A DNA stretch of 64,000 nt from IMG/VR virus record IMGVR_UViG_3300013947_000002, positions 32,001 to 96,000 of that record; one strand, written 5' to 3'. The stretch comes from a virus. Position 1 is the first letter of the stretch. Each line of letters starts with the position of its first letter. The notes under the pieces are model-generated. The model did no database searches. It was not told the origin of the DNA and was given only the letters and a program-made list of their open reading frames with translations. Shown piece by piece: positions 1,666-59,461 of the stretch. The translations under genes were made by a program, and so were the position numbers.

Positions 1666-2441
1666 TCGTTTATTTCATTTATTCAGTTGTCAAGGTTCAT
1701 ACTGTGATACCCTATCGCTAGGGGCATACGGCGTTTCGCCTTTAGTTGAACAACAGTTCCCATTGAGTTGGGCTTATTGTAGATATGAGGCCGTAGCCTC
1801 CGTCACCTCCTTTCGTCAATTATGCTTCGGATAAACCAGTGGATAATTCAAGAGAAAGTGACCTCCCTTCGGATATTCATAGCCGCCAATGAGTAGTAGC
1901 GACAGGCAGTTTCAGTATGTGCCTAGATACAAGCATTTCGTCAAAGCTCTTACTTGTCAAGCGCCATCAAGCATCTAGCGCTACTCACTGTTATGTTTTA
2001 ATCACGGCTAAGACTCGCTTGGTGTTACCGCCAATTTGGTCTTATTTAATCCCTCATCCCATGCACACGGGAACCGCAGTGCGCCTCATCTTATTTCACC
2101 CACGCATGGCGCTATGTTGGGAAATATGGTGCAATGGGTCTTAGATGTCTGCTCATCTCGCCTTTGCCTACTTATAGCAGAATCACCTGATATTTCTTTG
2201 CCGCATATCAGAAGCGTTTTTGAATATACGGTTTTCATCGTTGCCTTATGGTATACCGCAAACCTTCGATAAGCGTCCACATATCACTCATAGGCAACCG
2301 AGCCATATGCTTCATACGTTCGTATAACACACCTGTTGCTATACGCCTATCATCAAGGATAGGATTTTCGATACTATATTGACGTAGCCCGCCACAGCCA
2401 ACGTCATGCTCGTATTAGGCTCCACTGAATTGTGGATTCAC
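1666..2441 (-). ncRNA. candidate large structured non-coding RNA (~0.8 kb)
   Basis: Bounded by a near-consensus promoter and a terminator. No credible ORF in six frames. Visibly more G+C than its flanks. Many helices, e.g. gaggc-UACG-gcctc (1787-1800), TCCAC/GTGGA, and nested ATAGGC..GCAAC / GTTGC-CTAT. Confidence 0.5.
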
Positions 2442-3714: not shown

Positions 3715-4246
3715 TCAATTTCCGTTCCTTTTCCTTCTGTTTCCGTTCATATTCCTCTTTTTTCTTATTGATGACATTGATAAAATCATCATAGTTCTGT
3801 TGCTTTGCCTTTTCCATGCGCTCTTGTGCTCTTTGCTCAAGCGTTTTTCTTGCTGTTCGTTCTGCCTCGGCCTGAGTCAGCAACTTTAGGTCATTTGGAG
3901 TCAACTTGCGCTCACGGACGCGCTTACGGTATTTCTTTGTAACACCGCGCCCATTGACATTGTTAAGAAAATCTTCGTTGACTTTGTATAATATTTTAAA
4001 CCAAGCCGGATTGATTTGCTCAATAAGCTCCCCTTGTTCATTTTTAGCCATCACCCTACGTTCAGGTAATTCCTCCAATGAGAATGTTCCTACTGCTGGC
4101 ATTTGACACCTGCCATCAAAATGAAGAATGTGTATAATAGTATCAACAAATCCCATCCAGTATTTCTTGGCAGTCTGGGGCGATACATTGAGCAATCCAC
4201 CTGCATAAGTATAAAATTCTTGATTCAGCTTGTTATGTTCGGCCAT
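3683..4246 (-). CDS. HU/IHF-like DNA-binding protein with long basic/acidic coiled-coil tail
   Basis: Start at ATG 4246 (SD aaggaag). Core MPAVGTFSLEELPERRVMAKNEQGELIEQINPAWFKILYKV follows the HU beta-arm pattern. Confidence 0.55.
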   Translation of the reverse strand: MAEHNKLNQEFYTYAGGLLNVSPQTAKKYWMGFVDTIIHILHFDGRCQMPAVGTFSLEELPERRVMAKNEQGELIEQINPAWFKILYKVNEDFLNNVNGRGVTKKYRKRVRERKLTPNDLKLLTQAEAERTARKTLEQRAQERMEKAKQQNYDDFINVINKKKEEYERKQKEKERKLNESNEDTTSD

Positions 4247-4658
4247 CTTCTTCTTCCTTAGCAAACTTAGGATTGTCAGGATAATTCTCTAGTACCCAAG
4301 CGTCCCATTCTTCCTTGGCCGGGCCTTTACCGTACAATGTGCCAGCCTTAACATAACTTGCCATATGTTTCTCGGCCTTGAACTCTAGCCGATAGTAGCC
4401 CTTCCTATCAGGGTAATACATACGCCGCTTCTGAAAGCCGTTCCAATATTCACCCGCTGGCTTGGGCGGATGGTCGCGGAACGTAATCACGCCAATGTCA
4501 GGCAATGAATACTCGACACCGTGCTGTAGCGTCTCGCGGATGATGTCGTGATATGCCGTTAGCACAATTTCAATAATTTTTGTGTCAACGCCTGTGCGCC
4601 GAATCAGCTCTTTTTTCATATCGGCCTTGCCAAGCCGTGGATATTTATTCTTGTGCAA
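4233..4658 (-). CDS. HU/IHF-like DNA-binding protein
   Basis: MKKELIRRTGVD...LPDIGVITFRDHP...YYRLEFKAEK resembles the HU fold. TTG start behind ggaaggag; an alternative ATG lies at 4619. Confidence 0.5.
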   Translation of the reverse strand: MHKNKYPRLGKADMKKELIRRTGVDTKIIEIVLTAYHDIIRETLQHGVEYSLPDIGVITFRDHPPKPAGEYWNGFQKRRMYYPDRKGYYRLEFKAEKHMASYVKAGTLYGKGPAKEEWDAWVLENYPDNPKFAKEEEDGRT

Positions 4659-4734: not shown

Positions 4735-5415
4735 TTAACATATCCCCCGTTCGGACAGGCGGGCTTCACGTGATGCAATGCGGCGCTGATTATCCGCTTT
4801 TTTGCCACACTCCTCAGAGCAATAATGCTGGCATACATCACGTGGTTTGAACCGCTTGCCGCAAATTGGGCAAATTGGATTAAGTGTGGCTGCATTGACT
4901 TTCAGATTCTCTACAATCTGCTTGCCAAAACAAGCCCACAACATTTTTTTATTGCTTGCTTTCTTAACCGTATATAGATACGCCACCAAGCTATTAACCA
5001 CAACATCCAGTGGCTCTTTGCTGTAATCCACAATATCTTGTGCTATGCACCGATACTTGTACAAATCGTCCTCATTGATATGCGGGTCATCGCCATAATC
5101 AAATCGGCGCTGATTCTTAATCCAGTAATTATACCGCTCAATGATTGGCGATTCTTCTCGCGTCGTATAATCAACTTGTTTGTTAATCAGCATTATCCAA
5201 TCAAACTTCCCAATTTTGTTATTATAGTGGATTCGGGAAGTAGGAATTTTGGCCGATATACGATTCATCGTGGAATTGTTGGGAGGCTCTACTTGGGTAT
5301 CCGGGTCTTTGTCTTTGGCGTATTGGAAGAAATTTGGCAATTTGGATTTAGTATATTTTTTTATAATATCTGAAATTTCTTTTGGCGGTTCCGATTTCCA
5401 CAATGTCTTTGCGAA
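4735..5415 (-). CDS. YonO/RdRP-like single-subunit RNA polymerase, exon 2 (C-terminal 226 aa)
   Basis: Frame is open exactly from the predicted 3' splice site (ggtattaaagG|ttcgca). No SD or ATG of its own. C-terminal zinc ribbon CPICGKRF...CSEEC. Confidence 0.55.
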   Translation of the reverse strand, partial: FAKTLWKSEPPKEISDIIKKYTKSKLPNFFQYAKDKDPDTQVEPPNNSTMNRISAKIPTSRIHYNNKIGKFDWIMLINKQVDYTTREESPIIERYNYWIKNQRRFDYGDDPHINEDDLYKYRCIAQDIVDYSKEPLDVVVNSLVAYLYTVKKASNKKMLWACFGKQIVENLKVNAATLNPICPICGKRFKPRDVCQHYCSEECGKKADNQRRIASREARLSERGIC

Positions 5416-6426
5416 CCTTTAATACCGTCTCTTTCGAGATACTTTAACACCACTCTAAGCGGTCGGAGTAGACTATCTCTTCATCTCAATGAGATGGATG
5501 GCACTTCGCAAGTAGGAATTTCACCTACAAGCTACACTGAAAACAGTTAGTCGTTACAGCTTCAAATGTTTGATATTTTAATTTTCTTGATAACCAAATA
5601 TCCAATCCTTATGGGTTTTATTTCGTCCGTGTAACACTCTGTCAATACAGGAATAACTTAAATTGCGGTCTTTTGCAAAATTTCTAATATTCACAAATTC
5701 TACATATTCGCCAGTTTTTAAGTTTCTTCCCCAACACGCCTTTTCGTGCGCCCTAGATGAATTGTCATGCAGGGTGAGCCATCTACAATTTTCTGGACAA
5801 TAATCACCATGTGGATTTATTCTGTCGATAGTCAAATCTTCTTGATAACCATTGGATAACGCCCAATCTCTGAATGTTTCATAAGAATTTAACCACTCGT
5901 CACAAACCGTAATACCCTTTGCTCCATAATCCGCATAGCTACGAACGTTAGGATTATAGCAACGCGACTTCATATTTGACCACGTCCTATAAAGTTTGCT
6001 TCGATTGCCAACTATCGCACCACCAGACTCTCCATGACGAGTTTTGTTCTGATGAACTCTCTCAAGTCTTAAACATCCACAAGAACGAATTGGTTTATAC
6101 TGCTGGACTAATTTGTATTTAACAACCTCGACAATGTTGCCGCAATCACACTTGCATACTACAAGTAATTTACCTTCTTTATTTCTTTTGTCTGGTAATT
6201 CAACAACCGTCAATTTTTCAAATTTATCGCCTATCTTAATTTCATTTGATCTCACACCTAAACCTCCTTTCTTTTATGATAACATCAAACATTCGCTTGC
6301 CACGGTATTGCCATGCGCTCATGCGTTTAGGGTTTTACCGTTAGCACGGCATATGCCGCACACCCTACATTTGTAGGTTCACCATCATTCACATCATATG
6401 TCACCATATGAGTGGACTATCGTTTA
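5416..6426 (-). mobile_element. group I intron with homing-endonuclease ORF, inside the RNA polymerase gene
   Basis: Minus strand carries gctaacggtaaaaccctaa (P3-P4 like), the R element taacGACTAactg and the S element agaTAGTCtactcc (P7 pairing GACTA/TAGTC). The 3' end ggtattaaagg matches the thyX intron end gggtataaagg. P1 is weak (gat/gtc). Confidence 0.7.
5578..6255 (-). CDS. intron-encoded homing endonuclease (HNH-related DRID...NCRW family)
   Basis: GTG start 7 nt after aaggagg. KLYRTWSNMKSRCYNPNVRSYADYGAKGITVCDEW...LTIDRINPHGDYCPENCRW. Paralogous to 37310..38005 and 58639..59334. Confidence 0.75.
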   Translation of the reverse strand: MRSNEIKIGDKFEKLTVVELPDKRNKEGKLLVVCKCDCGNIVEVVKYKLVQQYKPIRSCGCLRLERVHQNKTRHGESGGAIVGNRSKLYRTWSNMKSRCYNPNVRSYADYGAKGITVCDEWLNSYETFRDWALSNGYQEDLTIDRINPHGDYCPENCRWLTLHDNSSRAHEKACWGRNLKTGEYVEFVNIRNFAKDRNLSYSCIDRVLHGRNKTHKDWIFGYQEN

Positions 6427-8325
6427 ATCTATAACTTGATTATTCTTCATTGTCAACCAAGCGATAACCTTGATTTGTTCCTCCGTCATCTTACCGCCAT
6501 TAGCGTTTTTTACCTTCGAAATTGCATTACTGATAGGGCCGATTGAGCCGCCTGTATATGCTGTACTTACACCTTCATATAGCCTGTCTGCGTCGATAAT
6601 ACCACCACGAGCTTTTTTAAGGTCATATGACAGCGGAACAATCCCTTGCATATTGCGCTTTGCTACAGTTGTTAGCGTCTTATCCTTGACAACTAAAGAA
6701 ATATCTCCGTCAAAATCTTGCTGCAAGATACGGCTAATCATGTCATGACAACTAAAATAAACACACTTTGTCCCACCCAACCATTTATCAGTCAATTCAT
6801 TTCGCTTGTTGACACGAACGGCGTGTTCTTGGTATAGGTGCGGACTTCTCAGACAATCAAGCTCGTCGCCATCCTTGAATTGATTAGTATATACTTCACC
6901 ATTCTCAAGTAATCCAGTTGGGAATTGTTCACCCTTGAATAACCACTCACAGAACGCCACAGGGTCAGGTGAGATGAACAAGTATTTGCCATTGATTCTC
7001 AATCTACCGCCTTTTGCTTGTTTGACAAGACTTTTTTTAGTTTGCTTTAATATTTCCCGATTGTAAACATCCTTGAATAATTCTGGATAAATCGTCAACG
7101 CCTCTTGCATGGCTGTTTTTGTCTGATTATACTCAGTTGCCCCAAGCAATCTCATCGTTGTTTGATAGTCACGCCCAACACTGTCAATTTCATCTACTGT
7201 CTTCGCGATAAGCCGCTCAATTTCATTGTCGGTCATATCGCTCAATGATTGTAGCATCTGATAATTGATTCGAGCCTTTGGGATATAATCCTCCTCGACT
7301 TTGCAGCAACCGAAGTGACAACCATAACTCTTAAAGTTCGACTTGTAGCAGAACCAGCTAGGGTAGAATTTGTACAGCTTAAACATTGATTTCGTTAGGA
7401 TATACTGAATATCATCTTCAATGATTTTCCATTCCTTTCCATATATATCCGTAACAGACCAATCATCAGCGGAACAATATTCTTTGAGCCATCCTCTAAA
7501 ATCAAAGTAGGACACCAACCCCTTTATCCACGGGCCGCGCACGATTTGCGTCTTGAATCCGGGCTTACAACACATGCCCCACCCGTCAGTTTCAGCTATA
7601 ACCGTCTCTGATACTTTGCGCGTAATGCTATAATCTGTATAATCAATAAAGTCCGACTCGGCAGTTACCGGCATCTCAAAATCATCCACCACTATACACC
7701 GGTCTATATCAAAATCGTCCATTCTGTCTGTTGCAGATGCCATAAGGCTCTTATAGCTCAACAGCTTGTTTTCATTCATACCGCCCTGAGCGTTAATTGA
7801 ATCGATGGTTAATCCGCACATGAGCGTCTGCTCAACTTCATTATAGTCTTTTTCCCTAACGGCCATAAACCGCTTTGTGCGTATCATGCCAGCGCCGCAT
7901 GAGTAGAAAATGTAATGCTCGCCTTTGTAATTGAAACCATTGTGAATGATGCTATTAAGAATCTCAAAAAAGAACACGTTGACAATGATTATTTTGTCGC
8001 TACGCTCGAACGTCTTGATTCCTAGACTTCGAGTCAACTCAGAACAGAATAGATTGATGATTGTCTTGTCTTTTACTGCGTCTGGATTGAGTTCTCTAGT
8101 AATATTATCTTCGAGAGATTTTTTAAGCAATTTGACAAGTTCGTCTTTATGCTTTTTAATAACACGATTGATAGATGAGACACGCCATTTGCGATTTTGC
8201 CCATCTTTTTCTCGCATACGCAATGTATATAATTTAACAAGACGATTATGAATGGCTTGTTCATCCGATGTATAGAAAGCATCTGTATTGATGGAGGGGA
8301 TGAAGCAAAACTCTGTTAATGGCAC
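6427..8325 (-). CDS. YonO/RdRP-like single-subunit (two-barrel) RNA polymerase, exon 1 (633 aa)
   Basis: GTG start after gaggtgat. CLRSPHLYQEHAVRV...VYFSCHDMISRILQQDFDGDISLVVKD matches the cellular-RdRP/YonO catalytic pattern (P-x-L-H-like strand, then DxDGD). The joined length of 859 aa is consistent with my recollection of YonO at roughly 800-plus aa; I could not verify that here. Confidence 0.6.
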
Positions 8326-8457: not shown

Positions 8458-9113
8458 TTCGCTCCACAATTCTCCTTATCACCTCTTTCCTGCGACTGAA
8501 TAAACTTGCAAAATTCCTCCATTAGTCCATTGTCTGCAATCCACTCAATCTTTGTCTTATGTTCAGCAACCGCCTTAGTGTTGATATTATAACCAAGTTG
8601 CTTACTGAACCCAATATACATATCGCGCCAAGCATTGTCGGCGTTGTGCTTGTTCATATTATTAGCTCGGATGATATCTCGCATCAGCCTATAGCAATAA
8701 GCGCGGTCGAATTTGACTGGACACGTCTCTTTGAACACACCACTACTGTCAATGTATCGACCATACTTACGAATTGACGGTAAGACCTCATGTGTGACCC
8801 AGCGTCTGAATTTGCGCAACTCGGCTTCGCGCCTTGCAATGTCTTCTTTAGCTGCTCCACGAACCATCTTTGGCTTCATTATGAACAACGCCTGATAAAG
8901 ACCCGGTTCATTGACAGTCAACACCTTCTGCTTTCCGCCAAGGGTGTTCACAATGCGAATACCCTTTTCATCGTCATCGAGCCGATTTGCGATGTGGCTG
9001 ACGTTCTTAACATACAAAATATCGCAAATATCCTTTAGTACAAACCAGACCTCACCATCAACTTCTGCGACTCTCACGCCTTGTGTAGTATATTCAAATT
9101 CCTTAAATTCCAT
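8454..9113 (-). CDS. Bro-N domain antirepressor-like protein
   Basis: N-terminus FEYTTQGVRVAEVDGEVWFVLKDICDILYVKNVSHIANRLDDDEKG...NEPGLYQALF is the typical Bro-N signature. Confidence 0.85.
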   Translation of the reverse strand: MEFKEFEYTTQGVRVAEVDGEVWFVLKDICDILYVKNVSHIANRLDDDEKGIRIVNTLGGKQKVLTVNEPGLYQALFIMKPKMVRGAAKEDIARREAELRKFRRWVTHEVLPSIRKYGRYIDSSGVFKETCPVKFDRAYCYRLMRDIIRANNMNKHNADNAWRDMYIGFSKQLGYNINTKAVAEHKTKIEWIADNGLMEEFCKFIQSQERGDKENCGAK

Positions 9114-9200
9114 ATTTTTATTAGCCTCCTTGAGCTTAATGCCATTATATCATAATATAACTTGATATTTGTCAAGTAATAATTTCGGTCTAAAATTTAT

Positions 9201-9220
9201 CCCCCTATAACCCCCTATAA
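9201..9220. repeat. tandem 10-mer CCCCCTATAA x2, with an inverted near-copy at 9409-9418
   Basis: Direct reading. ttgtaggggg at 9409-9418 is the reverse complement with 1 mismatch. Confidence 0.8.
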
Positions 9221-9309
9221 GGTATAATTAAATACTAACGTATTTAATTATTTACTATATTATATCACAAATTTTTCTATTTGTCAATAGCAAAAATAAA
9301 AAATTTTCT

Positions 9310-9338
9310 CTTGACATTGTATTGCTTCTATGATATAT
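9310..9338 (+). promoter_or_regulatory. sigma70-type promoter (upstream of two tandem rightward promoters)
   Basis: TTGACA 9310-9315, 17 nt spacer, TATATT 9333-9338. Followed by the palindromes atattacta-gta-tagtaatat and ACAGTATATACTGT. Confidence 0.5.
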
Positions 9339-9459
9339 TACTAGTATAGTAATATATAAGTATTAACAGTATATACTGTAATAATAATTATTTTTTATAG
9401 AAAAGGGGTTGTAGGGGGAAAACCGTCAAATTGTAAACGAATTGTAAATGAAATTGTTC

Positions 9460-9488
9460 TTGACAAGTTGCGCGACATATGCTATAAT
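9460..9488 (+). promoter_or_regulatory. sigma70-type promoter of the rightward gene block
   Basis: TTGACA 9460-9465, 17 nt spacer, TATAAT 9483-9488. Confidence 0.7.
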
Positions 9489-9509
9489 CTTGCCATGAGG
9501 TGAAAAACA

Positions 9510-9722
9510 ATGCCACGAACAAAGAAAATTAACCCGCGCGTCCAATATGGCGACACTAGCTGGATTGTCAATGATTGCGGCAATGGGCAATTCGAGCTGT
9601 ATAATACCAGCACCAAACAAATTCCAGCAAAGAGTAATAATCCACTGGATTTTGATAAATATATTGACAAAATTTTTGGTAAGGAGGCGGCTAAGAATGT
9701 TCGAGATTTTCAAGCTGAATAA
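9510..9722 (+). CDS. hypothetical protein (70 aa)
   Basis: First ORF after the promoter, with SD gaggtg upstream of the ATG. Confidence 0.5.
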   Translation: MPRTKKINPRVQYGDTSWIVNDCGNGQFELYNTSTKQIPAKSNNPLDFDKYIDKIFGKEAAKNVRDFQAE

Positions 9723-25827: not shown

Positions 25828-26830
25828 TGTAAAGATGATGGTGCTACGAAGCCCACAGAGGACACTATCCATGGAGTGCCGAGCTGGGGAATACAGGAGC
25901 AGTAGTAAATGGAGTGAGATGAACAGCCATCATTATATGCCATATGAGGTCTTGAATGCGAATGAGCCAATGGCTGAAATTGCTCATCCAGATTTGGAGT
26001 AGTATTCAAGATATAACCTTAGCATTGCTCGTGCGAGAGGCAAGCCAAGCTAACTGCATATCCTACGTGGAATGTCTGTCTTGGATGGAAAAGAGCGAAT
26101 TAGGGAACGTGCGTGAGATAAATGAGAGAAGCATAAAAGCGGGTCACAGTCGTGTGAAAGACCGTAATGCCAAGTAGGGCGCACCAGTCAATCTGTTCGG
26201 CATAATAAAGGGATTGGGGTTGACGATTATAGAATGGCACATCGGAAAGACGATGATAATATCCGACCGGATTTGAAGATAACCGTCAAATCTATATCAC
26301 GCCTGCACTGGGGTCTGCGCAGAGTTTGAGAAGCGGCAGATACAGACTAGAGAATTGGGGTCGCGCCCAATCGTGCCACGTTAGCATCCATGCAAAAACG
26401 TAACGTCGAAGGTGATATAAGGATGTTATGTAAACAGCATTCACGAGCCGATGCTAGAAGTAGCTATGAGGTAGGAAGTCGGCTTGAGATTGAATATGGA
26501 AGTGTAAGCTAACTGGATAAACCTCGCCAATTTGGTGAGATTGCAAGTTCGATTCTTGTCACTTCTATTCCCCCACATCCATCACGCTTCTGTTTAGCAT
26601 TGCAAGCGTACCACGATGGATGTATAGAAAAGTCTAAAATCCTAGCTTTGTAAGGCTGAACACAAGAATTGGTCACTTGTGAACGGTCTAGTTTATAAGT
26701 TATAATGCTAGTTGCCGAATAGTTGAAAGCTGACCACCTGACGCTATGAGGCAGCGCTCGCCACACTCCCGATTTTAAGATGGTTGCGCAACTGTAAATT
26801 CAATTTAGCCTGAATTTGTAAGGAGTGTGG
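25828..26830 (+). ncRNA. candidate large structured non-coding RNA (~1 kb) with an embedded tRNA-like module
   Basis: No ORF with an SD. Visibly more G+C than its flanks. Helices include TTGGG-gtcgcg-CCCAA (26355-70), ACGTTA/TAACGT (26378-83/26401-06), AGCCGA/TCGGCT (26446-51/26479-84) and CCACACTCC/GGAGTGTGG (26771-79/26822-30). The 3' end is uncertain, and this could be a long 5' UTR of the HU gene. Confidence 0.45.
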
Positions 26831-30855: not shown

Positions 30856-32254
30856 TAAAGGCGCATCTAGGCCATATCTAAAATGCATCGGCGCATCGGC
30901 TGTTGGTGTTACTCAATCATGCTATATGGTTCGTTTTCAAAAATACTGTATTATGTTAGATTGCGGCATTTACCAAGAGAGCGACATCCTTACTAATTAC
31001 AGACAGAATCAAGCGTTGCTTAAAAAGATTAAGCCAAGAGAGGTGGATTGGCTTATTTTACATGAGGCTCATGCCGATCACACATGTCTTGTTCCGGCTC
31101 TATATGCTAAAGGATGTCAAGCTCATATCATATGCCCAAAAGGAACTACGGCTTATCTTAAGGTGTTATGGGAAGATTCTTGTAAAATAATGACGCAGGA
31201 TTGTCAAAAGATTACAAACAAGCACGGGATTAAAGCTGCGCCATTATATACACCGGATGATATTGCGACAGCTCTTAGTAGATGTATCGAAGTCGAGGCA
31301 TTGACAAAATACAACTTAACACCTAATATTGTACTAACATATTATCCAGCCAATCACATTATCAATTCGTGCCAATTATCACTTGTAATGACGCAAGGCT
31401 ATCAACGTAAAGTGTTAAATTTTACTGGTGATATTGGAGGAAAAACGTCGCAGTTTTATCTTGAGTCAAGAGTTGATTTGCCGTTCTGCGACGTGCTGCT
31501 TGGTGAAAACACATATAATGCCATTGGGCGCAACAACAAGCCGTATGATAGGCAGAAAGATTTAGATAAGATTGAAGCCGTTCTTAATCAGTCTAAACGA
31601 ACACTGTTCCCTGTATTTGCATTAGGTCGATGCCAAAGTATATTAACTATACTATACCAGTTGTGGAAAGATAACAAGATTCCGCACGATGTTCAAGTAT
31701 ATGTAGATTCGCCTATGGCCCAAAAGATATGTGCTTTATATCCAGAAGACGATGTGCTGTGGAATGAAGTATATCATTGGGATAAATTGCAGTTTGTGCC
31801 TGACCACGCAACTACATTATTACTTCAAAATACAAAACCAACTCATCCTATGGTGGTTTGCTCGTCTGCGGGTATGCTATCGGGCGGTAAGAGTATATCA
31901 TGGGCTAAGGCGTTACTGCCAGACCCAAATGCCCATATTATGTTCTGCGGTTATAGCTCTGAAAATACGCTTGCTTCAAAGATTAGATTTGGTGAGAGAA
32001 AGATTAGTATTGAAGGTGACGTGGTTGAGAACAATGCTAATATCACGGAGCTTGTGTCATTCTCGTCTCATGCCTCGCGCGATGAATTGATTAATTATTA
32101 CGCAAATACGTTGCGTTTCAACAAGCTCTGCCTGGTACATGGCAATTATGACAATAAAGTCGAATTTGCCCATACTCTACAAGATGCGCTTGTTAAACAG
32201 GGTAAATCAAATAGGGTTGTAGTGACCCAACAAGACCAGAGAATTTTTATCTGA
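30848..32254 (+). CDS. metallo-beta-lactamase fold beta-CASP nuclease (RNase J/CPSF/SNM1-like)
   Basis: LHEAHADHTCLVP, SSAGMLSGGKS, FSSHASRDEL and LVHGN motifs in beta-CASP order. Confidence 0.75.
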   Translation: MVNKGASRPYLKCIGASAVGVTQSCYMVRFQKYCIMLDCGIYQESDILTNYRQNQALLKKIKPREVDWLILHEAHADHTCLVPALYAKGCQAHIICPKGTTAYLKVLWEDSCKIMTQDCQKITNKHGIKAAPLYTPDDIATALSRCIEVEALTKYNLTPNIVLTYYPANHIINSCQLSLVMTQGYQRKVLNFTGDIGGKTSQFYLESRVDLPFCDVLLGENTYNAIGRNNKPYDRQKDLDKIEAVLNQSKRTLFPVFALGRCQSILTILYQLWKDNKIPHDVQVYVDSPMAQKICALYPEDDVLWNEVYHWDKLQFVPDHATTLLLQNTKPTHPMVVCSSAGMLSGGKSISWAKALLPDPNAHIMFCGYSSENTLASKIRFGERKISIEGDVVENNANITELVSFSSHASRDELINYYANTLRFNKLCLVHGNYDNKVEFAHTLQDALVKQGKSNRVVVTQQDQRIFI

Positions 32255-54665: not shown

Positions 54666-55530
54666 AAACACAATTCTGCCTCCCTGTGCAGTAATGCACA
54701 GTAAAAAATTCTGTGAACCTATAAATATAGGGTGTGGTTTTGACGTTTAGTAGTTATAGGAAATGATAATTAACAAAACCGCTAACGGGGAAACCTAAGT
54801 CAATACGATATGGCAATCCCGTGGAAAGTTGCTTGGTTTAAGAGAAAAAATAAATAAGAGAGGAGGATTCAATGTGAATCATGTAGAAATTTCAGATTAT
54901 CCGGGTTATGAAATTTTTGAAGATGGTCGCGTGTTTTCAAAATATACAAACAAGTTTCTAACATCAAAGATTGATAGATACGGATATAGCGTATATCATT
55001 TAAGACGTGGTAAAAATGAATTTCCAACAGCGCATAGATTGGTTGCGTTGGCATTTATTCCCAATCCGAATGGTTTTCAATCTGTAAACCATAAAGATGG
55101 AAATAAACAGAATAATAATAAAGACAATCTTGAGTGGTGTTCTGAATCATATAATAGTTGGCATAAATGCAACATCCTTAATGAGAAACCAATCAGATAT
55201 GGAGATAAACAAGTTGTGGCTAAAAATACAATAACTAACGAAGAGATATTGTTTAATTCAGAATCTGATGCTGCGATATTCTTTAATGTATCACAAACAA
55301 CTATCAGTCGAAAAATTTTGACCAAACATATTACACCTAAAAGATGTAAGACACAAAATTGGCTGTTTGAATTTAAGTAACTCAAAAACTCTTAAACCAA
55401 GTAAAATCTCTAACGACTATCCATAATGGAGTACAGCATAAGCGAAATTCTTATGTTGGAAGTGCAGAACCCCAACAAATAGTTGGGTGAAGATATAGTC
55501 TAAACTATTATGAAAATAATAGAATCAATG
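54666..55530 (+). mobile_element. group I intron 1 in nrdJ, with HNH endonuclease ORF
   Basis: P1: exon ggaggT pairs with the IGS Gcctcc (54678-83), with U.G at the splice site. gctaacggggaaacctaag. R tctaacGACTAtcc, S aagataTAGTCtaa. Ends in G. The splice restores AGG|GIGYAFSNL. Confidence 0.8.
54874..55380 (+). CDS. intron-encoded HNH homing endonuclease (NUMOD4-HNH-HTH type)
   Basis: GTG start 7 nt after ggagg. ISDYPGYEIFEDGRVFS, VNHKDGNKQNNNKDNLEWCSESYNSWH, C-terminal FFNVSQTTISRKI. Confidence 0.8.
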   Translation: MNHVEISDYPGYEIFEDGRVFSKYTNKFLTSKIDRYGYSVYHLRRGKNEFPTAHRLVALAFIPNPNGFQSVNHKDGNKQNNNKDNLEWCSESYNSWHKCNILNEKPIRYGDKQVVAKNTITNEEILFNSESDAAIFFNVSQTTISRKILTKHITPKRCKTQNWLFEFK

Positions 55531-56032: not shown

Positions 56033-56202
56033 TAGCCGTATAAACGTGCGGATGTAAAATCTCCTCTGATTGACTTGGACGCTGAATACACAGCTACAAG
56101 GGGCAAGGGTAATGCTAGCCTGAACGACTAAGCGAGGAGACCCCAAGGGGATGCGATAGTCTAGCGCACGATGTGAAATGTATTTGATACACATTGTGTG
56201 AG
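56033..56202 (+). mobile_element. ORF-less group I intron 2 in nrdJ (short; 3' boundary less certain)
   Basis: P1: exon atccgT pairs with Gcggat (56047-52), with U.G at the splice site. R gaacGACTAagc, S gcgaTAGTCtagc. Ends in G at 56202. The splice gives SNP-C-AEYL and creates the catalytic Cys codon t|gc. Confidence 0.65.
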
Positions 56203-57743
56203 GCGCTGAATATCTAGCAGGTACAATCAATTCAATCGGCCCGTCGCAGTATGGCGGTGCTTGTAACCTCGGCTCATTGTTCCTTCATAATTTTGTTCGT
56301 AATCCATTTACTAAACAGGCACATCTTGATACTGAAGCCCTACGCGATACAATTTCTATTGCTGTCCGTATGCTTGATGATATTATTGATGTCAATAAAT
56401 TCCCCGACAAGATTTATGAGAATTATCAGAGGGGTATGCGCACCATTGGTATTGGTATTACAGGTCTAGCTGATATGCTTGCTATGCTAGGCATGAAGTA
56501 TGACAGTCAAAAAGCAAGAGATTATGTTGAATCTCTAATGCAAATGATTACAAATGCTGAATATTATGCCTCTGTGCAACTTGCTAAAGAAAAGGGTTGT
56601 TTTCCTCTGTGTGAGCCCGACAAGCATATTGACGGCGCATATGTCAAGGACGTCCTAGAAAAAGACGTACTCGATGAAATGGCCGAGTACGGTATTCGCA
56701 ATGCCAAGATTCAAGCCGTTGCCCCATGTGGCACAATCTCTATAGTATTCGGGAACAACTGCTCTAGCGGCATTGAGCCGATTTTCTCTCTGAGTTATGA
56801 CCGCAAGGCAAAGATTGGCGGTCAGGATGATAAGGATGTCAAAATCGTCAAGATGATGGACTACGCTTATTATCTATATCATAAGCTGAAAGATGAAGGC
56901 AAGCTCCTAGATTTTGATGAACATGATATTTTCCCAACCGCTCTCAATATGTCTGTTGATGACCATGTAGCTATGCTTGCCATTATTAGCAAATACACCG
57001 ACATGAGCGTTAGCAAGACAATCAACGTTCCTACTGAAGCATCGTTTAATGAAGTCAAGGACATTTATATGCAATGCTGGGAAAAAGGCATTAAGGGTTG
57101 CACCATCTTTAGACCTAATGCTATTCGTCAGGGCATTTTGCTGACTGATAATAAGCAAGGCGAAGAAAAATCTGAATCGATGGAACCACCAACTCTCCCT
57201 CGCGGTTCAATCATCGAGCCAAGCAATGACCTGATTGGCAAAAAGCGCAAGATTCAGACAGGATGTGGCAGCTTACACGTCATCGGCTTCTTTGACCCCA
57301 TTGATGGCAGTCTACAAGAGGTATATTTCAACAAAGGCTCGACAGGCGGATGCCAGAATTTCATGGTTGGTCTGAGTCGCGCAATCAGCCTACTATGCCG
57401 TGCCGGTGTAGATATTATGACCATCAAAGACCAGCTTGATTCAACAGGTGTATGCCCCTCTTATGCTACGCGCAGAGCAACCAACCATGATACCAGTAAG
57501 GGGTCTTGTTGCCCCATGGCTATTGGCAATGCTCTAGTTGATATGTATAATGAGATGCAAGCAGAGCTAGATGATAAAGAGGATGACGATAAGCCGGTAA
57601 AGAAAGTACCGATTAAATCCGAGATTGGCAAAGTAAACGTATTAAATACGAACAATGGTGTATGCCCTGAATGTGGCGAACCGCTTGTGTTTGAGGGCGG
57701 TTGCTGCACCTGTAAGTCATGTGGATATACAAAGTGCGAATAA
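56203..57743 (+). CDS. nrdJ: NrdJ exon 3
   Basis: YGGACNLGSLFLHNFV...TGLADML...APCGTISI...C-terminal Cys cluster CPECGEPLVFEGGCCTCKSCGYTKC. Confidence 0.8.
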
Positions 57744-58440: not shown

Positions 58441-59461
58441 TAACATAAAAGTGCCCTTACATAGTAATATGTATTGAAAACTCCGTTAACTTGTAATTGC
58501 AAGGTGTGAAGTTAACTTTTTAAGGTCGGCAAGGAAATATGCCGTTTATAACTTTGCTAACAGGGGAAATCTAAGGTTGACACTATGACAACCCTGTGCT
58601 ATAATTAAAATGTCCAGAGAAAGAAGGAGGTGAGAATTTTGAAGAAAATTAACATAGTTAACAATATTTATTCTTCCAATCATTACGGTGATTTTATTGT
58701 AGAGAAAGAGCTAAATTCGCAAGGAACAAGCACATATTATCAAGTCCGCTTTTTGAAAACTGGTACAGTATGCAAGGCTGAAAAACATAACATTAAAAAA
58801 GGTTCCGTAGCCGATTGCTATGCTAAAACAATTTATGGTGTTGCTTGTCGAGGGCAAGCATCTTCCAGACATCCTACTTTAAACAAAGTAGCTTTTAAGC
58901 GTTGGACGGCTATGGTGTCCCGTTGTTATAATCAAAATGATATTGGTTATAAATCTTATGGTGGTAAAGGTTATACCGTATCTGATAGTTGGCTTTGTTT
59001 TGAAAATTATATACGAGACATTGTTGATATTGAAGGTTTTAATGAAGAAAAATATCTCAAAGGCATCATTCAATTGGATAAAGATATTAAAGCCCCCGGT
59101 AACAAAGAATATTCTGCCGACAAGTGCATATTTCTAAATGCTTCTATTAATAAGAGAAATCAACCTTCAAAGCAAAGAGATTTTTATGCTATTTCACCAC
59201 AAGGACAACAATTCATATATAATAACGCTAATGCCTGTGCCAAAGAAAACAACCTAACCGCAAGAACTATCTTAAAATGTTTGAAAGGTCAATTCTCACA
59301 ACACAAAGGCTGGACATTCAAATATGTAGTCTAACGACTATCTCGAAAGAGAGTAGAGCAATTATGAAATGAATTGCTCGAAAAGCGGAGAACCCATATC
59401 TTTATGGGTTGTGATATAGTCTACTCCCCTAATAAATATCGGGAAACCGAGGGTATAAAGG
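58441..59461 (+). mobile_element. group I intron in the thyX-like gene, with endonuclease ORF
   Basis: P1 gcaT / Gtgc. gctaacaggggaaatctaagg. R gtctaacGACTAtctcg, S gtgataTAGTCtactcc. 3' end gggtataaagG. The splice gives WVSVH|FVRHHIGCNHYVQSQR (RHR...S.R-like ThyX motif). Confidence 0.75.
58639..59334 (+). CDS. intron-encoded homing endonuclease (same family as 5578..6255)
   Basis: TTG start 8 nt after aaggagg (track start is GTG 58630). VAFKRWTAMVSRCYNQNDIGYKSYGGKGYTVSDSW. Confidence 0.7.
   Translation: MKKINIVNNIYSSNHYGDFIVEKELNSQGTSTYYQVRFLKTGTVCKAEKHNIKKGSVADCYAKTIYGVACRGQASSRHPTLNKVAFKRWTAMVSRCYNQNDIGYKSYGGKGYTVSDSWLCFENYIRDIVDIEGFNEEKYLKGIIQLDKDIKAPGNKEYSADKCIFLNASINKRNQPSKQRDFYAISPQGQQFIYNNANACAKENNLTARTILKCLKGQFSQHKGWTFKYVV

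Follow-up and report, generated by a model that had tools for sequence, protein, structure and literature searches.

A yonO-like RNA polymerase gene read as one gene across a mobile group I intron in an uncultured phage

What does it mean if a gene for a phage RNA polymerase runs into a stop codon, and the C-terminal part of the protein is found about a kilobase further down? The question is raised by a stretch of 64,000 nucleotides (nt) of viral DNA, here called the window, which comprises positions 32,001 to 96,000 of the IMG/VR record IMGVR_UViG_3300013947_000002. An earlier reading of the bare sequence, below called the original prediction, had taken positions 8325 to 4735 of its minus strand as a yonO-like gene split by a group I intron. 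With a probability of roughly 90%, the two outer open reading frames (ORFs) of this locus are one gene, which encodes a single-subunit two-barrel DNA-dependent RNA polymerase of the YonO type and has within it a mobile group I intron that resembles subgroup IA. The locus is built as follows:

6427..8325, minus strand: exon 1 of the yonO-like RNA polymerase gene; 633 codons, GTG start; GxIRTK motif and catalytic DFDGD (residues 537-541)
5416..6426, minus strand: group I intron, 1011 nt; starts with an in-frame TAA, terminal G at 5416
5578..6255, minus strand: intron-encoded homing endonuclease gene; 225 amino acids (aa), GTG start after GGAGG; in the P6 terminal loop
4735..5415, minus strand: exon 2 of the yonO-like gene; 226 codons and stop; C-terminal helical region and Cys4 zinc ribbon

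The continuity of the gene is best seen at the protein level. The first ORF occupies 6424-8325 of the minus strand, including its stop TAA at 6426-6424. Its GTG start lies nine bases past the ribosome-binding site GAGGTG, it contains the DFDGD peptide as predicted, and its stop is identical with the first three bases, i.e. the first codon, of the intervening sequence. The downstream frame is open from 5418 to its stop at 4735-4737. The 226 open codons up to 5415 had been seen correctly; that the frame opens exactly at the 3' splice site had not, since the sequence there reads TAA AGG/TTC.. (a slash marks the splice or insertion site here and below), and the frame opens one codon ahead of it. 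Joined at 6427/5415, the two minus-strand ORFs yield 859 aa. On the 847 positions of the profile PHROG 8308, the first ORF covers 7-644 (E = 1e-200) and the downstream frame 645-844 (E = 2e-22). The two stretches abut, which implies that the exons are contiguous and not neighbours by chance.

The spliced 859-aa product matches YonO of SPBc2 in a single tblastn piece (40.5% identity, 99% coverage, E = 6e-174), and its length is as close to that of YonO (839 aa) as had been stated. The pairwise alignment extends from the N-terminus through ..IDFAKTL.. at the junction to a common C-terminal Cys4 ribbon, with DFDGD (537-541) placed on DNDGD of YonO. The two ORFs are by no means always separate genes in homologs: at 88 of the 94 related loci the protein is encoded in one piece. 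Uninterrupted homologs from a large protein collection (859-862 aa, 92-93% identity) read ..WLTMKNNQIIDFAKTLWKSEPP.. over the junction, and the homologs P0002 and P0006 (92-93% identical, uninterrupted) read ..MKNNQIIDFAKTLWKSEPP.. across it, with ..NNQIID/FAKTLW... In an alignment of 36 homologs, SPBc2 YonO included, R149 and K151 of GxIRTK, D537, D539, G540 and D541 are invariant, and so are N628, N629, I632, D633/K636, T637, which flank the exon junction.

The borders of the intron were set by intron-less alleles, uninterrupted proteins, the U•G pair of P1 and the terminal G. In blastn against the intron-less relatives L007 and L015, where the site reads ..AATAATCAAATTATTGATTTTGCGAAAACG.., the alignment stops at window position 6426 and resumes at 5415, precisely the ends that had been predicted (5416-6426). 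The intervening sequence closes with ..GGTATTAAAGG (..AAAGG at 5416). An intein is ruled out, as the insert starts with an in-frame stop.

The insert can be folded into a group I ribozyme. Helices were assigned by inspection, and their coordinates were checked by a script (all on the minus strand):

6256..6426: 5' ribozyme segment
6429-6425 with 6419-6415: P1; GAU/UA pairing with UAGUC, U•G at the splice site; invariant in 4 orthologs
6411-6394: P2; a GNRA loop closes the helix
6386-6380 (GAUGGUG) with 5503-5497 (UGCCAUC): P3
6377-6364 and 6361-6344: two extra hairpins, covarying
6341-6302: P4/P5; ACGGUA-AAA-CC..GG-CAA-UACCGU
6301-6284 (5' strand) with 5574-5558 (3' strand): P6; the 225-aa ORF lies in its terminal loop
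5416..5577: 3' ribozyme segment
Directly before P7: J6/7; GUAAC
5552-5548 (GACUA, R element) with 5475-5471 (UAGUC, S element): P7
5547-5536: P7.1; all 4 pairs compensatory
5532-5508: P7.2
5496-5482: P8
5466-5425: P9.0/P9/P9.1; three-way junction

The P3/P7 pseudoknot is present, and so are the R and S elements that form P7. Extra helices that separate P7 from the P3 3' strand, here P7.1 and P7.2, are the criterion by which Michel and Westhof defined subgroup IA; their presence places the intron there. A P10, as judged by inspection, would have at most 3 bp and is not conserved.

Whether this fold is real can be judged from its relatives. Contigs found via their truncated proteins provided orthologous introns in the identical position. 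L008 and L013 (1009 and 1007 nt) have the ORF of the window intron as well, while a third, L011, is ORF-less and measures 290 nt. Together with the window they form the alignment A1 of four orthologous yonO introns, in which the ORF loop was trimmed. Over the 88 proposed pairs, pairing amounts to 97.9%, and 27 of the pairs show double-sided changes; shuffling gave 10 ± 2.4 such pairs, and none of 500 shuffles reached 27. If the partners are slid by 1-3 columns, only 1-3 double-change pairs are left. P3, P4 and P7 are constant within these four orthologs; the core (P3, P4, P7, P8 and R/S) is intact throughout, while the peripheral helices covary. P1, P3, P4 and P7 covary at a larger distance, i.e. 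across the yonO intron of the window, that of phage phi3T, and the thyX and nrdJ introns of the window. The P3 versions in these four introns are GAUGGUG with UGCCAUC, GUCAGUG with CGCUGAC, CUCCGUU with AGCGGAG, and UUCUGUG with UGCAGAA; P7 is GACUA with UAGUC in three of them and GACCA with UGGUC in phi3T. Two alternative P3 helices were discarded. One follows the Rfam alignment and takes the strand that immediately precedes P4, the other uses the GGUGUG junction; both are non-complementary in the phi3T, thyX and nrdJ introns, whereas the adopted P3 pairs and covaries in all four.

The Rfam model RF00028 (Intron_gpI) aligns to the ORF-less L011 intron over model positions 1-253 (32 bits, E = 1.6e-6), with P4-P5, P6, R, P8 and S as assigned here; the model's own P3 is not satisfied. 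That the ribozyme is kept in this ORF-less version indicates that the conserved thing is the RNA, not the endonuclease gene.

The extra hairpins deserve a separate remark. At 6377-6344 (minus strand), CCUAC pairs with GUAGG and GUGCGGC with GCCGUGC, with compensatory changes, and the pair of hairpins is flanked by conserved GUGAAC and GGUGUG. In canonical group I introns, including those of phage Twort and T4 td, J3/4 is only 2-3 nt long. The same J3/4 insertion is seen in the first nrdJ intron, the thyX intron, the phi3T intron and those of the related loci L031, L039, L044 and L089.

The intron is mobile. It is present or absent at one precise site in close relatives and carries an intact endonuclease gene. 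Two of 14 IMG/VR relatives have it. One record, IMGVR_UViG_3300013383_000025 (L023; 95,956 nt), matches the whole locus together with its insert at 95.9% identity. Among the 94 related loci, L024 as well as L023 has an intron at this site. In addition, five protein clusters (P0031, P0033, P0036, P0037 and P0038; 622-633 aa) end exactly at ..NNQ[VI]ID, which points to further relatives with an insert at the same place.

The endonuclease itself is less easily classified. It matches phrog_374, 'HNH endonuclease', with E = 1e-57, and its C-terminus shows a weak similarity to Pfam I-HmuI_NUMOD-like (21.6 bits, under the cut-off of that model). L008 and L013 have intact orthologs of it at 77-78% identity. 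With the ORF of the thyX intron it shares 28% identity; similarity to the HNH_3 enzyme encoded by the nrdJ intron could not be detected, and the PDB chains yielded nothing meaningful. The motif TIDRI..YCPENCRW..DNS is invariant. In this motif we presume an Arg at the position where the first His of an HNH motif would be expected. The N-terminus of the family is rich in Cys (CxCxCG..SCGC), a segment that is repeated several times in the intron ORF of L039. The enzyme would cut or nick the intron-less allele.

The identity of the polymerase is corroborated by its fold. The model was built by AlphaFold for the uninterrupted homolog P0006, which is 92% identical to the window protein, in place of the window's own spliced sequence (mean predicted local distance difference test, pLDDT, 84.5; predicted template modelling score, pTM, 0.75). 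The exon junction falls inside helix 615-637 of this model. Foldseek against the PDB retrieved the plant RNA-dependent RNA polymerase RDR2 (7w82, E = 9e-17, template modelling score 0.52), QDE-1 (E = 1e-12) and the two-barrel polymerases of Thermus phages (8f5m and 8f72, E = 5e-6), and no further match under E = 0.1. The predicted family is supported on three sides, i.e. by the identity to SPBc2 YonO, by the DxDGD motif invariant in the 36 homologs, and by a fold of the RDR2/QDE-1 kind. A PDB sequence search with the spliced protein gave but a weak match to the zinc ribbon alone, from which it follows that no YonO structure has been deposited. For YonO of SPbeta, biochemistry and genetics revealed a processive DNA-dependent RNA polymerase that requires its aspartate triad (PMC5467207), and its activity is required to express 37 late structural and lysis genes (PMC5467207). 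For the window protein, polymerase activity and its targets would follow from the homology to YonO and from gene order.

Several observations weigh against the interpretation as a whole. In the window, Rfam does not find Intron_gpI, neither at the gathering threshold nor at E ≤ 10, which is to be expected from an ORF of about 700 nt inserted in P6; the ORF-less L011 intron stays with its 32 bits below the gathering score of 50 bits; sub-threshold group I matches were seen only in L011 and L039, and Rfam scans of the phi3T, Goe14 and BUCT083 loci gave no group I match. P1 is short (5 bp), and two hairpins occupy a place where canonical group I introns have just a short linker, J3/4. The endonuclease matches no Pfam HNH model, and the NCBIfam HNH models are likewise unmatched, so that its catalytic class rests on the PHROG annotation. 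Exon 1 of the window does not reach the Pfam family RdRP (PF05183) at E ≤ 1, and both exons searched against Pfam and NCBIfam revealed no polymerase family. SPBc2 YonO itself has no Pfam RdRP match either; the homologs P0030 (71% identical, 35.9 bits) and P0039 (58% identical, 40.7 bits) exceed the cut-off of 23.8 bits.

Could an active polymerase be obtained without any splicing? A homing endonuclease cassette might have split yonO, the halves being translated apart and assembling thereafter. Such genes in pieces have a precedent in phage Aeh1, where ribonucleotide reductase is split. Exon 1 indeed ends in a stop and holds both conserved catalytic motifs, a TTG at 5403 could initiate a 222-aa product, and in every relative that has the intron, gene callers report two proteins. 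Yet the starts they call for the exon-2 product vary among these relatives (173, 215, 218 and 205-232 aa), a conserved start codon or ribosome-binding site of exon 2 is not seen in the relatives compared, and its open frame matches the 3' splice site to within one codon. The intervening RNA, moreover, has a group I fold that is conserved, shows compensatory changes and is retained even in the 290-nt version that has no endonuclease gene. Two separately made halves are therefore very unlikely. An intron that has decayed or lost its ability to splice would leave this phage with a pseudogene or with nothing but the truncated 633-aa product. Splicing is here deduced from DNA, and the 5 bp of P1 and the unusual J3/4 insertion fit such decay. 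However, P3, P4, P7, P8 and the R/S elements are intact and invariant in the four orthologs, with a covarying periphery. Exon 2 retains the family-invariant residues (K636, T637, AKDK, the Cys4 ribbon) and is 96% identical to its L023 counterpart; it thus appears to be under selection. Also, SPbeta needs its YonO for 37 late genes (PMC5467207). Decay is highly improbable.

The fold, on the other hand, could suggest that the enzyme is not a DNA-dependent transcriptase but an RNA polymerase dependent on RNA, or a nucleotidyl transferase of some other kind, e.g. a primase-polymerase. The best matches among solved structures are the eukaryotic RNA-dependent RNA polymerases RDR2 and QDE-1 (E = 1e-17 to 1e-11), homologs match Pfam 'RdRP', and database names often read 'RNA-dependent RNA polymerase'. 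But among characterised relatives none comes nearly as close as YonO, with 40% identity over the full length, and YonO was shown to be DNA-dependent and to transcribe late genes (PMC5467207); no primase-polymerase family was matched in Pfam, PHROG or NCBIfam. An enzyme of this other kind is extremely improbable. We hence keep to one DNA-dependent polymerase gene with an intron in it.

If so, the course of events may be pictured as follows. The consensus promoter at 9287-9259 probably serves the RNA polymerase of the host, which would transcribe from it the bro-N gene, a 47-aa ORF and yonO. The intron would fold in the pre-mRNA, and an external guanosine would attack just behind the U that forms the U•G pair in P1 (..AUAGAU/UAAAC..). 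The freed 3'-OH of exon 1 would then attack after the terminal G at 5416. Ligation, with ..GTTATAGAT/TTCGCAAAG.. as the predicted junction, would restore NNQVID/FAKTLW, the invariant motif of the uninterrupted homologs, and thereby the 859-aa polymerase. In unspliced RNA, translation would end at the first codon of the intron, TAA. Judged by its homolog YonO of SPbeta, the polymerase would go on to transcribe the late block that lies downstream on the minus strand. The P6-loop endonuclease would cut or nick the intron-less yonO of relatives that infect the same cell, its target being the conserved ..AATAATCARRTNATHGAT/TWYGCNAARAC.., and repair off the intron-bearing copy would spread the intron (homing).

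How new is all this? YonO of the Bacillus subtilis prophage SPbeta (Forrest et al. 2017, PMC5467207) resembles the window protein in full-length homology (839 versus 859 aa), DxDGD triad and C-terminal Cys4 ribbon, but SPBc2 yonO is uninterrupted. The phages differ, too. SPbeta is a Bacillus prophage, while the window belongs to a group of uncultured phages with genomes of about 90-96 kb, which are known only as contigs from metagenomes and from the viral sequences of IMG/VR (Hadza is the label of one sample). Other Bacillus phages, however, have yonO interrupted at the identical codon boundary (..NNFTID/FAKTLF..), i.e. phi3T, SPR, Goe11, Goe14, BUCT083 and SPbetaL3-7. Their inserts start with TAA and end with G, and GenBank annotates the interrupted yonO as two genes or as yonO_1/yonO_2. 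The core of the phi3T-group insert is homologous to the window intron (P2 with GNRA loop, GTGAACC..AGGGTGTG, GCTAAC, AACGAC, GGTGAAATTCC), with compensatory changes in P3 and P7; the P9 module is different. The phi3T insert is ORF-less and has 400 nt versus 1011 nt in the window; those of Goe14 and BUCT083 have 1290 nt and carry a GIY-YIG gene in the P4/P5 region instead of an HNH-family gene in P6. The claim of the original prediction that an intron in such a gene had not been highlighted before thus stands for the literature searched, in which no description of a yonO intron was found, but not for public genomes, where the same site is already occupied. In this sense the element is of an ordinary kind.

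Introns in genes of phage multisubunit RNA polymerases have in fact been published (PMC11620839, PMC2919709). In PhiPA3, the gene of the virion RNA polymerase (gp211/209) has an intron whose product gp210, an HNH endonuclease, nicks the polymerase gene of a rival phage (Birkholz et al. 2024, PMC11620839); gp273/274 of 201phi2-1 is another phage polymerase gene with an intron (PMC2919709). In common with the window is a mobile intron with an HNH-family endonuclease in a non-T7-type RNA polymerase gene, the target, here a predicted one, being the intron-less allele of related phages; the difference is that these jumbo phages have multisubunit polymerase genes, and here the single-subunit YonO type is concerned. 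The I-HmuI-type HNH nicking endonucleases of Bacillus phages are similar in being intron-encoded, in the NUMOD-like module (weak) and in PHROG 374, and dissimilar in that the window endonuclease matches no Pfam HNH model.

The subgroup IA phage introns (T4 td, Twort orf142-I2, SPO1-like DNA polymerase) share P7.1/P7.2, the R/S sequences and an ORF in the P6 loop with the window intron, but reside in other host genes and lack the pair of covarying hairpins that separates P4 from the P3 5' strand. For Twort and td this likeness is a presumption and not a tool result. Window positions 5421-5486 (3' core and P9) are about 87% identical over 60 nt to DNA of SPO1-like phages. These counterparts are unannotated; they lie between fragments of the DNA polymerase gene in SIOphi, as introns of that gene, and beside tail genes in Moonbeam. 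Megablast of the locus against phages gave 60 nt of the intron core only.

The window holds further introns of this family. As had been predicted, the yonO intron shares elements with those of nrdJ and thyX, namely the R element (AACGACTA), the S element (GATAGTC) and the block GTGAACC..AGGGTGTG; the thyX intron ends in ..GGGTATAAAGG. The three further group I introns lie on the plus strand (54666-55530, ~56033-56240 and 58441-59461), the borders of the first nrdJ intron and the thyX intron having been placed by means of exon motifs, the terminal G and the U•G pair in P1:

54666-55530, plus strand: nrdJ intron 1; HNH_3 ORF at 54829-55380
~56033-56240 (approximate borders), plus strand: nrdJ intron 2; short, ORF-less; R element at 56124, S element at 56156
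58441-59461, plus strand: thyX intron; I-HmuI-like ORF at 58630-59334

Introns with the same core blocks as those of the window also occur in other yonO-like genes, at other sites:

L031 2307-3222 and L039 3049-4342: insert after ..GGIN[TP]N/KFLAY.. (about window residue 187); ORF present
L044 2570-3580: insert at ..RILQ/VDNDGD..; HNH_3-like ORF (by eye)
L089 4093-4997: first insert, within QFD/CDGD; ORF with a LAGLIDADG-like motif (by eye)
L089 5272-5562: second insert, 289 nt, ORF-less; P1 puts its 5' splice site 4 nt upstream of that of the window

One of the insert ORFs at these other sites looks Bro-N-like by eye. Related introns with four kinds of ORF (HNH-family, GIY-YIG, and by eye LAGLIDADG-like and Bro-N-like) thus reside in YonO-like genes and occupy at least three invariant motifs, GGxNxN/K, the catalytic DxDGD and NNxxID/xAKT. 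The YonO-like gene looks like a hot spot of introns. It is a tentative and rather doubtful idea that the late polymerase gene of the yonO type is a preferred battleground of introns and that the window endonuclease may disable the copy of co-infecting intron-less rivals, an interference competition as with gp210 of PhiPA3 and not selfishness alone.

The surroundings of the gene recall SPbeta. The relevant features are:

4233..4658, minus strand: gene of an HU-like DNA-binding protein, directly downstream of yonO; Pfam Bac_DNA_binding, 24 bits, above the cut-off
9259..9287, minus strand: candidate host-type promoter upstream of the bro-N gene, the 47-aa ORF and yonO; TTGACA-17-TATAAT with TG, 12/12 consensus

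The order yonO followed by an HU-like gene is the yonO-yonN order of the SPBc2 annotation, and the next genes in relatives have YonJ_CC and YonG_N domains. Between the promoter and yonO, no terminator-like site was seen on the minus strand; the promoter is consistent with expression of yonO by the host polymerase. It belongs to the divergent intergenic region 9114-9546, where three near-perfect TG-extended promoters of the sigma-70 type are found (minus 9287-9259, plus 9460-9488, plus 9311-9339). This region probably separates the arm with bro-N, yonO and the late genes from a plus-strand arm for replication and nucleotide metabolism.

In SPbeta the promoter of YonO is undefined; the YonO transcript of the late operon starts upstream of yonK and of a non-coding RNA that lacks annotation (PMC5467207). 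By analogy with SPbeta, the late block of the window would be served by promoters of an undiscovered class, as proposed. A search by eye for a promoter motif shared by the SPbeta yonN-yonK region and the window late block, which had been suggested as a check, gave nothing convincing.

Structured RNAs are found in the late blocks. A drum RNA (RF02958, 43.3 bits) lies at 2224-2320 (minus strand) between a 394-aa Metallophos gene, the L007 ortholog of which is YonJ-like, and the gene that follows. L007 and L023 have the drum RNA, too, and L007 additionally has a DUF3800-VIII RNA. About 200 nt upstream of the drum RNA (2321-2520) are conserved in the window, L023 and L007 and look structured. SPbeta-like phages have a skipping-rope RNA after yonN, near the reported start of the YonO-dependent transcript (PMC5467207). 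The structured RNAs of the late block may indicate where late transcripts that depend on YonO have their 5' end. L007 has, after its YonJ-like gene, an extra segment (8785-8825) with a perfect host-type promoter, TTGACA-17-TGTGATATAAT, that is missing from the window. Elsewhere in the window, at 26498-26567 (plus strand), a tRNA-like sequence scores 30.9 against the Rfam threshold of 29 bits, with an odd alignment of the anticodon arm. As to the host, a scan of GTDB genomes for close relatives found nothing; a profile scan revealed relatives of 37-60% in bins of metagenome-assembled genomes of mixed taxonomy, probably mis-binned phage contigs.

In practical terms, the locus should be annotated as one 859-aa polymerase gene with an intron, not as two hypothetical proteins and an endonuclease. 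The same re-annotation is due for yonO_1/yonO_2 of phi3T, SPR, Goe11, Goe14 and related records. The late-transcription strategy of YonO would be extended by the window from Bacillus prophages to abundant phages of about 90-96 kb known only from metagenome and viral contigs, and the many homologs now available would permit a comparative mapping of the YonO promoter. Pairs with and without the intron, at 92-98% protein identity, offer a natural system for homing and for endonuclease-mediated competition at a phage polymerase gene.

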